This document shows, piece after piece, positions 8,417 through 24,423 of a stretch of 64,000 nucleotides of DNA. Source of the DNA: Escherichia coli (GTDB taxonomy: Bacteria; Pseudomonadota; Gammaproteobacteria; Enterobacterales; Enterobacteriaceae). How positions within the stretch are numbered: the stretch's first letter is position 1; the number at the start of each line of letters is the position of its first letter. The position numbers and the translations under genes are program-made. The stretch is taken from the NCBI RefSeq assembly GCF_046105845.1, contig NZ_CP151004.1. One strand, written 5' to 3'. The notes beneath the pieces are model-generated. The model did no database searches and was not told where the DNA came from. It was given only the letters and a program-made list of their open reading frames with translations.

Positions 8417-9749
<1,333 letters not shown>

Positions 9750-9824
9750 ATTTATTAGATCAGGTGTGACCTGACCCATCTTTGGCACAGAGCCAAACCT
9801 GAACTGACGGACCGCTCTGTGCCA

Positions 9825-10130
9825 TTACCTGACGTTGTATTCTTTTATGTTAACACCCTTGATACTGTATATACCTGTCCGCTTAATTCGCTTGCCCTTT
9901 TTATTCGTAATAGTTGCTGTAAGTGTACTGCAGCGAATGGAATGACGTTCATCAATCACCAGCCGAATTGCTTCTGAAGCATCTTCCACCTCTAGAAGGT
10001 CGTGAGTCTTATTTAAGCCGAATGGAACAAGGTGGAAGGCCGTTTTTCCAGATGATTTTCTGGTTATTTTTACTGGATACAACACATCACCACTTTTATG
10101 GATTAATTCAAGCTGTTCAATGTAAATCAT
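9825..10130 (-). CDS. Hypothetical protein, 101 aa, in AT-rich segment
   Basis: ORF with AGGAA Shine-Dalgarno 8 nt upstream of ATG; about 40% GC by eye; no recognised family. Confidence 0.4.
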   Translation of the reverse strand: MIYIEQLELIHKSGDVLYPVKITRKSSGKTAFHLVPFGLNKTHDLLEVEDASEAIRLVIDERHSIRCSTLTATITNKKGKRIKRTGIYSIKGVNIKEYNVR

Positions 10131-10217
10131 GGCAACTTTCCTTCGTTTATCTGCATGAATATATAAACCGAAAATAGGAGATGCAATACAAAAGCTGTGG
10201 AAATATCAAATAGCCTC

Positions 10218-10574
10218 TCAATTTGGCAGACAGCGTCTGCCAAATCTTTGCCGATGGGAATTCTGCAGAATTTCAACATGTTGATAAAAAAGGTAAAAAA
10301 GCTTCATTTGGCGTAAGTTTTTTGCAGAGACCCCACGTTTATACCGTCGACTTAAATCCTGCGATAACCGATCAATCAGCTGTGCAGCATAAGCCGCTCT
10401 TGCCTCGCCGCCTTGTTCAAATTCGACAATTCGTCGGCCAATTTCCCAGTATGTGGCGGTCATTAACGCGTTAACACTACGTACCGTTTCCGTCCGGGCG
10501 CTATCGACCAGGTGAATAATACCGTCGTGGATTTGCTGGTAGCCTGTTGAGGTTCTCTCTGAGAGCGATTCCAT
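10218..10574 (-). pseudogene. N-terminal fragment of DUF1016/YhcG-like (PDDEXK nuclease family) protein, truncated
   Basis: 118-aa ORF with TYWEIGRRIVEFEQ...NLRQMKLFYLFY resembling the N-terminal domain of DUF1016 proteins; full-length members about 340-375 aa; C-terminal nuclease domain absent. Confidence 0.5.
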
Positions 10575-10765: not shown

Positions 10766-11935
10766 TCAGGCGGTTTCTCTTGCTGTCACTACGCCATTTT
10801 GCGCAGCCCACAGATTCACATCTTCCTTACGAATGGCGGCGGCCATCATGCCGGGGAATAAATCTGGGGTACAGGCAAAGGAGGGAATACCCATGGCGGC
10901 GAGTTTTCCTGCCAGTGACCGGTCGTAAAACGGCGCACCTTCATCGCTTAAGGCCAGCAGGGTAACCACCTGTACGCCGGACTGAATCAACTCACTGGCG
11001 CGTTGCAACAGATTGCGTTCCACCCCGCCTTCGTAGAGGTCGGAAATCAGCACCAGAATGGTATTGCGCGGATCGCGAATCAAAGACTGGCAGTAGCCCA
11101 CCGCGCGGTTGATGTCGGTGCCGCCACCCAGCTGTACGCCAAACAGCAGCTCTACCGGATCGTCGAGCTTCTCTGTCATATCAACGACTGCGGTGTCGAA
11201 AACCACCAGATGCGTTTTTACCGCCGGGAGCGATGCCATTACTGCGCCAAAAATACTGGAATAGACCACCGAGGAGGCCATCGACCCACTCTGGTCGATA
11301 CATAAAATGATCTCCTTTTGCGTGCGTTGAGACTTGCGCCCGTAGCCGATCAGCGTTTCAGGAACAATACTTTTATACTCTTCCTGCCAGTGGCGCAGGT
11401 TGGCGCGAATGGTGCGCTGCCAGTCAATTTCCGCGTGGCGCGGGCGACGATTACGTACCGCACGATTAAGAGCGCCGCTTACCGCGCTACGCATTGGCTC
11501 TTCAAGCTGTTTCATCAATTGCTCGACAACTTTACGCACCACAAGCCTGGCGGTTTCTTTGGTTTTGGCCGGAATTACGCCATTCAGCGACATCAGCGTG
11601 GAGACCAGATGAACATCAGGCTGGACGTTTGCCAGCATCTCTGGCTCCAGCAGCATACTGTGCAAATTAAGACGTTCAAAGGCGTCTTTTTGCATCACCT
11701 GAACCACAGAAGAAGGGAAATACTGGCGAATATCACCCAGCCAGCGAGCGACTTTGGGTGACGATCCACCCGTGCCGCCGCGTAATCCATGTTTACCGTC
11801 TGGCTGATAGAGCGCCGCCAGCGCGGCATCAATCGCGGACTCTCTGGCATCCAGCGCCACGTTACAGGCATTGTCGGCATCTTCTCCAAGGATCAGACGC
11901 CAGCGGCGCAGCCGTTCCATTTCGTTACTCGACAT
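10766..11935 (-). CDS. VWA-domain protein with MIDAS motif (CoxE-like)
   Basis: 389 aa; DxSxS motif in ILCIDQSGSMASS and downstream VLISDLYEGG; N-terminal RWRLILGE typical of CoxE-type VWA proteins; AGGGA SD upstream; 11-nt overlap with upstream gene. Confidence 0.8.
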   Translation of the reverse strand: MSSNEMERLRRWRLILGEDADNACNVALDARESAIDAALAALYQPDGKHGLRGGTGGSSPKVARWLGDIRQYFPSSVVQVMQKDAFERLNLHSMLLEPEMLANVQPDVHLVSTLMSLNGVIPAKTKETARLVVRKVVEQLMKQLEEPMRSAVSGALNRAVRNRRPRHAEIDWQRTIRANLRHWQEEYKSIVPETLIGYGRKSQRTQKEIILCIDQSGSMASSVVYSSIFGAVMASLPAVKTHLVVFDTAVVDMTEKLDDPVELLFGVQLGGGTDINRAVGYCQSLIRDPRNTILVLISDLYEGGVERNLLQRASELIQSGVQVVTLLALSDEGAPFYDRSLAGKLAAMGIPSFACTPDLFPGMMAAAIRKEDVNLWAAQNGVVTARETA

Positions 11936-22800: not shown

Positions 22801-24423
22801 AAATTGCTGGCGGAAGTAATCGTAAATAATGCGCGGCTGACTGGAGAGCACGGCGAATGGGGTGTCGTCGCCCATCGAACCGACCGCTTCCTGACCGTTT
22901 TCGCCCAGTACGCGAATTACGGAGTCCAGCTCTTCCGCGCTGTAGTTAAACTGTTTCTGGTAGCTGGCAAGTGTGTCGTCGTCCAGTTCGCGGCTACCTA
23001 CTTCTTCATCGGGCAGATCTTCAAACGGTACCAGTCGGCGGACGTTTTTCTCCATCCACTCTTTATATGGATGGCGGCTTTTCAGATCGTCATCGGTTTC
23101 TGCCGAGTGCAGAATACGCCCACTGCGGGTGTCGATAACCATCAGTTCGCCTGGCCCGACGCGGCCTTTTTCGACCACTTCGTCAGGCTGGTAATCCCAG
23201 ATACCGACTTCAGAGGCGCAGGTGATGAGCTTATCTTTGGTGATGACGTAGCGCGCCGGACGCAGACCGTTACGGTCGAGGTTACAGGCAGCGAAGCGAC
23301 CATCGGACATCACGATGCCCGCCGGACCATCCCACGGCTCCATATGCATGGAGTTAAAGTCAAAGAAGGCACGCAGTTCCGGGTCCATATCCGGGTTGTT
23401 CTGCCAGGCGGGTGGTACTAACAGACGCATGGCGCGGATGATATCCATCCCGCCTGCCAGCAGCAGTTCCAGCATGTTATCCATCGAACTGGAGTCAGAA
23501 CCGGTTTCGTTGACGAACGGCGCGGCGTCGTGCAGGTCAGGGATCAGCGGCGTCTGGAATTTATAGGTACGTGCGCGCGCCCATTGGCGGTTACCGGTGA
23601 TGGTGTTGATTTCACCGTTATGCGCCAGGTAGCGGAACGGCTGCGCCAGCGGCCAGCGCGGTACGGTGTTAGTGGAAAAGCGCTGGTGAAACAGGCAGAT
23701 GGCCGATTCCAGACGCAGGTCCGCGAGGTCCAGGTAGAAGCGCGGCAGATCCGCCGGCATACACAGACCTTTATAGATGTTCACCAGATTCGACAGGCTA
23801 CAGACGTAGAAGTCTTTGTCGGCTTCGAGACGCTTTTCAATGCGGCGGCGGGCGATAAACAGACGGCGCTCCATATCGCGCGGACGCCAGCCTGCCGGGG
23901 CGTTCACAAAAATTTGCTCAATGCGTGGCAGAGAGGAGAGGGCGATTTCACCCAGCACGCCTTCGTTAGTGGGGACATCACGCCAGCCCACAATCGACAA
24001 CGTTTCGCGTTGCAGCTCTTCTTCAACGATGTGGCGTGCGGCAGCAGCGAGTTCAGGATCTTTATTCAGGAATAGCATCCCGACGGCGTAGTTTTTTGCT
24101 AAACGCCAGCCGCGCTCCTGCGCAACGATGCGAAAAAAGCGATCCGGTTTTTGTAACAGCAAGCCGCAACCGTCACCGGTTTTACCATCGGCGAGAATCG
24201 CGCCACGGTGCTGCATGCGGGCCAGTGCGTGTATTGCAGTACGCACTACCTTGTGGCTAGGTTCGCCTTCTATGTGGGCGATCAGGCCGAAACCACAGTT
24301 ATCCCTCTCAAGGGATTTATCGTACAACATATCGTGAACCTCCCCCAGGCTCTGCGGGAACCCCACTTCCGAACCGCTGCGCACGGGCACAGAAAGAGCG
24401 TGGCGACGGGGGTTGCGTGTCAT
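19870..24423 (-). CDS. gltB: Glutamate synthase large subunit
   Basis: Track ORF 1522 aa; start at [12 protein letters not shown] gives 1517 aa; N-terminal propeptide before Ntn Cys in ERDNCGFGL; 12 nt upstream of gltD. Confidence 0.93.

Follow-up and report, generated by a model that had tools for sequence, protein, structure and literature searches.

MIC231 of Bacillus cereus is the textbook mobile insertion cassette (MIC). Elements of this class combine inverted repeats, passenger genes, and a target duplication with the absence of a transposase. The term belongs to the vocabulary of ISfinder, as do MITE and solo IR (PMC3129680). Repeats on both sides of foreign DNA have also been recorded in phages. 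Two GenBank entries from 2004 for Z-regions of P2-like phages (AJ512682 and AJ512683) carry a feature annotated as 'left inverted repeat' and, beyond a foreign ORF, a 'right inverted repeat'. Neither record offers a mechanism; the connection to an IS and the 7-bp duplications reported here were derived in this analysis. Searches of the literature by text and by sequence string found no description of the repeats or of their link to an IS; the 2004 Z-region paper and ISfinder lie beyond that search, and part of the system may already be described. Analysis of a 64-kb stretch of Escherichia coli DNA (the window) revealed a repeat of the same family behind the nan operon. With high probability, it is a solo IR accompanied by the remnant of a passenger, namely, the orphan terminal inverted repeat of a non-autonomous cassette derived from an IS481-family IS, which would have been mobilized in trans and later damaged by a deletion.

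The + strand of the window carries the nan operon genes nanT, nanE, nanK, and nanQ (yhcH), and two hairpins follow the nanQ stop codon (Table 1). A preliminary description of these hairpins had named the sequence downstream of yhcH in K-12 as the comparison that could refute it. No identical sequence was found there. K-12-type genomes share nanQ up to the TAA and diverge directly after it; a short spacer there leads into the 3' end of yhcG, which is intact and convergent. In the window, a 468-bp segment (positions 9750 to 10217) stands in place of about 790 bp of 3' yhcG, and K-12 homology resumes at 10218, within yhcG, at an internal palindrome. The same arrangement was detected in about 720 of 5,426 complete E. 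coli genomes, including derivatives of E. coli B and HS. The locus explains a strain polymorphism, namely, the yhcG pseudogene of E. coli B, HS, and about 13% of complete genomes and the small orphan gene that follows the nan operon in those genomes.

Table 1. Features around the 3' end of nanQ in the window; the assignments to a cassette, its target site, its passenger gene, and a deletion follow the favored, probable reading.
Feature	Position	Strand	Basis
nanQ (yhcH), last gene of nan operon	9285..9749	+	ORF list; annotation of relatives
Predicted left target-site duplication copy, GCTTAAA	9744..9750	.	K-12-type comparison and NNTWANN pattern from nine perfect cases
Terminal inverted repeat ('left inverted repeat' family), probable outer cassette end	9751..9836	+	nhmmer, blastn, GenBank features
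Part homologous to IS481-family IS inverted repeat	9751..9777	+	IS end definition, profile-to-IS match
Hairpin 1, tcaggt-gtg-acctga	9760-9774	+	Sequence; palindrome
Hairpin 2, tggcacagagc/gctctgtgcca	9783-9793 pairs with 9814-9824	+	Perfect 11-bp stem, 20-nt loop; conserved core of inner module
Degenerate hairpin B (gaccgct ... acctgac)	9810..9833	+	4/7 pairs; alignments, pair counts
Putative passenger gene, 101-aa ORF	9825..10130	-	ORF list
Putative passenger gene upstream region, up to deletion junction	10131..10217	-	Alignments
Truncated yhcG (DUF1016 N-terminal part only)	10218..10574	-	Pfam DUF1016_N, E 2e-25; alignment with K-12-like and B strains; PGAP pseudogene

Several further observations were made on the yhcG side of the locus. 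The yhcG gene (DUF1016) holds repeated palindromes of the form xxCAGAC-N3-GTCTGxx, for example TTTGGCAGACAGCGTCTGCCAAA at 10221-10245 (window segment 10218-10270). A K-12-like genome carries two more such palindromes in yhcG and another in the nanQ-yhcG spacer (L002, 4115-4150 and 5000-5100). The K-12 homology resumes exactly at the first yhcG palindrome, and between two of them the window is 52 bp shorter than B and K-12. Another inverted repeat, perfect over 11 bp (GATTCCATTAT/ATAATGGAATC, 10567-10577/10605-10615), spans the start of the truncated yhcG with its arms 27 nt from each other. Beyond the yhcG remnant lies an island (10766-14174 onward) encoding a VWA-domain protein (389 aa) and a DUF5682 protein (749 aa); in relatives, a gene for an ATP-binding protein is also present. 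Together with the repeat-plus-ORF arrangement, the island occurs in no complete RefSeq E. coli genome. In 29 genomes of the SMS-3-5 type (e.g., NZ_CP033635.1), a different, 0.9-kb insert with two hypothetical ORFs follows directly after the nanQ stop (equivalent to window position 9750 onward), and yhcG is cut at a point different from that in the window. This insert was considered as a possible family member; it starts with ACGTATTCGCTCAGG, and its first 15 nt are terminus-like, but no profile recognizes it.

Both hairpins of the preliminary description proved to be real in a direct reading of the sequence, in an inverted-repeat listing, and in the fold prediction that it had called for, which recovered both stems on both strands. 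The predicted + strand RNA reaches -27.5 kcal/mol (z -3.5; 1 of 200 shuffles as good) and the - strand RNA -36.4 kcal/mol (z -5.6; none of 200 shuffles as good), with G-U pairs lengthening hairpin 1 to 10 bp on the - strand. An 11-bp inverted repeat alone is common, as the 64-kb window holds 20 pairs of at least 11 nt within 40 nt. Hairpin 2 stands above chance because it is conserved in homologs, not by its stem length alone. Hairpins 1 and 2 are nevertheless not independent of each other, as their description as two successive hairpins had implied, but parts of one repeat of about 86 nt. A third palindrome of this repeat, hairpin B, overlaps the 3' arm of hairpin 2; the two are mutually exclusive. 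In relatives, hairpin B reads GTCCGCT-N10-AGCGGAC and abuts the cargo. Three CTGAC motifs were found in the window element (9771-75, 9804-08, and 9829-33), the second of them in the loop of hairpin 2. They resemble the repeated ATCTGACAG found in intact ends and are plausible candidates for contacts with the transposase. A Hin/Gin-type hix/gix site was also considered in this loop and rejected; by eye, only one half-site-like stretch is present.

Pairing and covariation were evaluated in 49 diverse homologous copies for three helices, with two registers of hairpin 1. The stem of hairpin 2 was paired in 92% of cells, compared to 23 to 48% when the partner was slid, and hairpin B was paired in 84%. 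The 6-bp register of hairpin 1 seen in the window was paired in only 53% of cells in relatives and is idiosyncratic to the window; the alternative 5-bp register, used by most relatives, reached 82%. No covariation above shuffles was detected in these copies (497 of 500 and 442 of 500 shuffles scored as high; double changes are few), and the repeat copies revealed no strand bias of G-T versus A-C. An early idea of wobble-only changes on the + strand, drawn from five sequences, disappeared in this larger test. Since pairing is high yet covariation does not exceed that of shuffles, the palindromes are conserved as sequence. No selection on a folded molecule, whether RNA or single-stranded DNA, is apparent from these tests.

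A sensitive search with the 468-bp segment revealed that only its first ~85 nt, the hairpin region, have relatives elsewhere. These dispersed and unannotated copies occur in about 620 other E. coli genomes, directly after the tail-fiber-assembly gene G in P2-like prophages, near a lambdoid integrase, and in an ST131 island; the window element is 76 to 83% identical to copies in P2-like, lambdoid, and other contexts. The matching stretch of AJ512682/AJ512683 is the annotated left inverted repeat, to which the window is 79 to 83% identical over about 80 nt (blastn). A profile of this left inverted repeat (LIR), built from 18 and later from 113 variants, matched the window at positions 9749-9844 with an E value of 3e-25 (nhmmer, model positions 3-98). 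Across the family, conservation extends over about 88 nt, from a few bases after a TAA to ...AGCGGAC(G/A)TT. At this inner edge, the information content drops from 1 to 2 bits to about 0.1 bit within 2 to 3 nt, and unrelated, AT-rich cargo begins. The same sharp junction between repeat and unrelated cargo, ...GGAC(G/A)TT, is present in the window element. Its inner boundary lies at model position ~90, where the window reads ...cctGACGTT|gtattc (capital letters up to the boundary, 9831-9836).

Host intergenic repeats, of the REP/BIME type or another, and small RNA genes with no relation to mobile DNA would likewise be intergenic and palindromic with dispersed copies, and a REP-like element was among the suggestions of the preliminary description. 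This suggestion found no support. No relevant Rfam match was obtained between 9500 and 10400 with E values up to 10 (chance hits only), each genome holds one to four copies (at most three or four), and the element measures 86 nt and has ends of the transposon type. At the nanQ site, K-12 does not have it, and its copies enclose cargo as inverted pairs flanked by target duplications, as described below. This possibility is therefore regarded as extremely improbable.

Hairpins directly after a stop codon, between convergent genes, might also act as a factor-independent, possibly bidirectional terminator or as a 3'-end stabilizer between nanQ and the 101-aa ORF, as their main or a secondary use. 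The preliminary description had likewise proposed that they terminate the nan operon, the convergent ORF, or both. Their placement and their stable folds on both strands agree with this proposal, and on the - strand the lengthened hairpin 1 is followed by AAUAAAUUUAAG. In addition, the hairpin of the K-12 spacer was lost with the deletion, and another signal must therefore end the nan transcripts in these strains. However, the tails of the hairpins (CCCAUCUUUGG and UUACCUGACG on the + strand; AAAGAUGGG and AAUAAAUUUAAG on the - strand) contain no U-tract. The earlier remark that neither has a strong T-run is thus correct, and a consensus scan for terminators and promoters listed nothing at either hairpin. 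The 20-nt loop is atypical for a terminator, and neither the covariation nor the strand-bias result favors one. Moreover, in P2-like phages the cargo and the partner repeat are followed by a terminator of canonical form, GGCGGGC-N5-GCCCGCC-TTTTCTTT. At empty sites (Salmonella phage STYP1 and 186-type phages), the gene G stop is followed directly by this terminator, and in occupied P2-like phages the whole left-cargo-right unit lies between the two. With no U-tract, a negative scan, and a separate terminator in the phages, the idea that the hairpins terminate either the nan operon or the 101-aa ORF is not supported, and this explanation is considered unlikely. At most, the window hairpins have a minor secondary role, incidentally shaping the 3' ends of the nanQ and ORF transcripts.

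The architecture of the repeat family was studied in 211 loci, collected by three pattern scans of viral contigs, one scan of species-representative genomes, and the retrieval of further loci. Profile searches detected 179 left-type and 161 right-type copies in these loci, with 113 distinct left-type sequences, and the dominant arrangement was left...right (112 loci). The 128 cassettes delimited in this way carry cargo of 81 bp to 5.8 kb (median, 1.56 kb), the largest ORFs of which fall into 60 clusters. Almost every cargo type has a fixed orientation. Cargo proteins include Shedu SduA (E 1e-219), a TIR protein, PDC-S15, PDC-S51, and an AriA/PtuA-like ATPase (PARIS/Septu-like). Left-type ends were found in at least 19 unrelated left-flank contexts, and one cargo was found in two different backbones. 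A search with the right-flavor end extended the distribution to 500 plasmids (367 of them conjugative) and 1,763 E. coli genomes; the plasmid hosts include Escherichia, Salmonella, Klebsiella, Yersinia, Serratia, and Pantoea. A scan of the genome collection with a strict 20-base pattern had returned only Escherichia whittamii; this pattern was too strict for the true range, which was seen later via the plasmids. The ~88-nt ends provide a practical handle in the search for new accessory and defense genes.

Some members of the family deserve separate mention. In a P2-like contig, a MITE-sized element (L167:1455-1699) follows gene G and consists of a left end and an inverted lambdoid-type end about 81 nt apart. 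Family ends also lie in accessory regions of the Klebsiella electrica IncFII plasmid NZ_CP041249.1 (~23660-23745) and of the Yersinia pseudotuberculosis plasmid p_153kb, and the neighbors of one of these plasmid ends are genes for anti-restriction and methylase functions, together with a trio of TerB-N, ATPase, and DEAD-helicase genes. Five copies are present on the Yersinia plasmid; a cassette among them measures 1.2 kb, and the heptamers on its two sides agree imperfectly (4/7).

Four cassettes with two inverted ends, whose termini read 5'-TGTATTAG...CTAATACA-3', were inspected for target duplications. All four are flanked by perfect 7-bp direct repeats (CATAAAT, GCTAACT, AGTAATA, and ATTAAGC); the chance of one perfect 7-bp repeat is about 6e-5. 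In other contexts, the flanking heptamers agree less well, with 3/7 in a P2 context (AATAAAT versus AATCAGG), 6/7 in a lambdoid context, and 4/7 on a plasmid. No cognate transposase was found in the ten cargo ORFs tested, which come from the four duplication-flanked cassettes and one cassette with long cargo (L142) and include nuclease-like and unknown domains. The single DDE_Tnp_1 match, in L142, looks like an unrelated secondary IS. The lack of a cognate transposase in these ORFs indicates that the element is non-autonomous (a MIC or solo IR) and not an IS. The complete relatives thus show inverted repeats, passenger genes, no transposase, and a target duplication, as MICs do, and the window copy is a truncated derivative.

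A candidate source of the transposase emerged from one match of the right-flavor end, located at the edge of an annotated IS481-family transposase gene. The IS to which this gene belongs is 1,201 bp long, with the ends TGTATTAGCTCAGACCTGATCTGACAG and TGTATTAGTCGCGACTTGATCTGACAC. Its 346-aa product (transposase, e.g., WP_032191707.1) has HTH and rve domains and scores 289 bits on NCBIfam NF033577 (IS481 family; cutoff, 224). The cassette ends carry the terminal 25 to 30 nt of this IS: one cassette (L150) matches end B at 25 of 25 positions, another (L178) is nearly identical to end A, and the LIR profile matches the IS with an E value of 1e-5. An inner module of ~60 nt, which contains hairpin 2 and hairpin B, is present in the cassettes and absent from the IS. 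Hairpin 1 corresponds to a dyad, TCAGA..TCTGA, inside the IS inverted repeat. In the window, TTTATTAGATCAGGTGTGACCTGACC (9751..9777) is identical to TGTATTAGCTCAGACCTGATCTGACA at 19 of 26 positions, and the terminus reads TTT, compared to TGT in the family.

Perfect 7-bp repeats also flank the IS in five of six contexts (CATTAAA, CCTTAAT, CATTATA, TTTTAGC, and CCTTATT). All nine perfect duplications, four from cassettes and five from the IS, fit the pattern NNTWANN, that is, NN-T-(A/T)-A-NN. Because of this target pattern, the elements often lie on a TAA stop codon. In the window, the TAA stop of nanQ (9747-9749) falls within the predicted target site. K-12-type genomes read GCTTAAA|ACTTAG at the insertion point, which gives GCTTAAA as the predicted left copy; the heptamer would be CTTAAAT (9745-9751) if the terminal G had been deleted rather than substituted. 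Both heptamers fit NNTWANN. Since the right copy is missing, the duplication in the window is a predicted one.

These duplications bear on an alternative in which a conservative site-specific recombinase acts on the repeat to insert and exchange cassettes, in the manner of integrons or att sites. Site-specific recombination has reportedly been proposed for the Z-region, judging by the title of the 2004 article of Nilsson, Karlsson, and Haggard-Ljungquist in Mol Biol Evol 21:1. Razor-sharp cargo boundaries at the palindromic hairpin B of both ends, the occurrence of one junction with many cargos, and the fixed places of cassettes in phage genomes would fit such a site. The perfect 7-bp direct repeats around all four cassettes, and around five of six IS copies with the same termini, are in contrast the signature of staggered-cut DDE transposition and therefore argue against conservative recombination. 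The termini are of the TG...CA type, no recombinase gene is consistently linked, and almost every cargo type occurs in only one orientation. A recombinase site is thus very unlikely.

Full-length copies of the IS were found in 77 of 5,426 genomes, and the ends in more than 1,700. One of these insertions concerns the locus studied here. In strain Z1323CEC0019 (NZ_CP148401.1, 986472-987672), an intact IS lies in the last nanQ codons with the target duplication TTTAATG (equivalent to window positions ~9737-9743), followed by a K-12-type spacer and an intact yhcG. The insertion is 7 bp upstream of the point used in the window. An independent IS insertion at this distance indicates that the 3' end of nanQ is a recurrent target. 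Apart from these insertions, the K-12 pseudogene ylbG (e.g., NZ_CP184745.1, 529657-530119) is a 92%-identical remnant of the IS comprising the N-terminal HTH part and one end. The ylbG remnant occurs in most E. coli genomes, and weaker, end-only matches adjoin betA.

The second end of the window element was sought with blastn-short and three profiles. Neither a right-type copy nor an inverted left-type copy was detected in the 64-kb window, and the window element is therefore an orphan. The 101-aa ORF next to it has its stop and last three codons within the inner end of the repeat. Its product (WP_000639208.1) is named 'transposase' by PGAP. No family was found for it in Pfam, NCBIfam, PHROG, or PADLOC, no transposase domain was detected, and a tblastn search of 50,697 phage records gave no match. 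The AF2 model was unusable (pLDDT 45). The protein belongs to a small conserved family of 101 aa at prophage edges in Enterobacter and Yersinia and is 100% identical in Shigella flexneri; homology of the upstream region to the Enterobacter and Yersinia loci also stops at the deletion junction. The PGAP label has no detectable basis and looks like an annotation artifact, perhaps prompted by the adjoining transposon end. A right inverted repeat (RIR) directly after the ORF in Yersinia had been suspected by eye; the profile gave only weak inner-module remnants there (E about 5e-4).

These observations support the part of the preliminary description that spoke of a recombination-associated element at the junction, and homology, cassette pairs, and 7-bp repeats allow it to be made precise as the terminal inverted repeat of a transposon-like cassette. 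The following order of events is proposed. An ancestral cassette, consisting of a left end, passenger genes including the 101-aa ORF, and a right end, would have inserted into the A/T-rich heptamer at the nanQ stop, before yhcG. A DDE transposase would have been supplied in trans by the related 1.2-kb IS. This enzyme is predicted to recognize the 25- to 30-nt TGTATTAG... termini, and probably also the repeated ATCTGACAG motifs, and to make 7-bp staggered cuts at NNTWANN. The right end, together with its duplication copy and ~790 bp of 3' yhcG, would have been lost in a later deletion that fixed the remnant in place. A complete cassette after nanQ would accordingly read right end, GCTTAAA, and then ACTTAGTTCG of an intact yhcG. 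The hairpins would be built-in palindromes of the cassette end, hairpin 1 within the IS-type repeat and hairpin 2 as the core of the ~60-nt inner module. Several observations count against this reading, namely, the single end in the window, its TTT terminus with 19/26 identity, the lack of the inner module in the IS, stems whose covariation stays within that of shuffles, the poor heptamer agreement in the P2 context, and the scarcity of full-length IS copies compared to ends. With its TTT terminus, 19/26 identity, and 4/7 hairpin B, the window copy is degenerate and very probably immobile, and in its present state it is most likely inert.

The cassette model may reach beyond this locus. We somewhat favor the view that the repeats of the P2 G-FI (Z/fun) moron site and the related ~88-nt ends found in lambdoid prophages, in >1,700 E. 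coli chromosomes, and on ~500 mostly conjugative plasmids of Enterobacterales form one non-autonomous cassette family. Moved in trans by an IS481-family transposase, this family would ferry anti-phage defense and other accessory genes among phages, plasmids, and chromosomes. The inner module would be a cassette-specific device that sets the cargo boundary, such as an insulator or a site bound by the transpososome or a host factor. If true, a testable mechanism would be available for one of the two classic sites at which P2-like phages carry accessory genes, with IS-derived cassettes, defined ends, and a candidate transposase. The target NNTWANN, often a TAA stop, would explain why genes land right after stop codons, and trans mobilization of this kind would explain the presence of the same defense gene in unrelated phage, plasmid, and chromosomal backbones.

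The window element was compared with known systems. Rho-independent terminators and REP elements resemble it in that hairpins lie directly after a stop codon between convergent genes; the window element differs from them by the lack of a U-tract, its long loop, its low copy number, and its homology to transposon ends. The feature is a mobile-element scar at an insertion hot spot rather than a dedicated terminator. In integrons, imperfect palindromes (attC) similarly bound highly diverse, promoter-less or single-gene cassettes. Unlike integrons, the cassettes described here have no integrase, no R-box core, and no arrays, and they have two inverted ends and 7-bp duplications.

The P2 Z/fun repeats (GenBank AJ512679-AJ512685) are homologous to the window element over ~80 nt, including both arms of hairpin 2. 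They also begin a few bases after a TAA stop and end in the same sharp junction with foreign, AT-rich DNA. The window copy differs in being chromosomal, outside a prophage, and without a right partner, and its hairpin B is degenerate. The IS481-family IS of Enterobacterales shares with the cassettes the terminal 25 to 30 nt (TGTATTAG..GATCTGACA), TG...CA ends, the 7-bp duplication, NNTWANN targets, and the hot spot at the 3' end of nanQ. The IS differs in that it codes for a transposase of its own and has no ~60-nt inner module; the genes carried by the cassettes are unrelated and include no transposase.

MICs are the described class that matches the cassettes in having passenger genes between IS-type inverted repeats, target duplications, no transposase, and presumed mobilization in trans. 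The cassettes differ from MICs in their unusually long (~88 nt) and asymmetric ends with two inner-module flavors, in their extreme cargo turnover (about 60 to 90 types), and in their concentration in accessory regions of prophages and plasmids. Within this group of elements, L167 is MITE-sized and the window copy fits the term solo IR.
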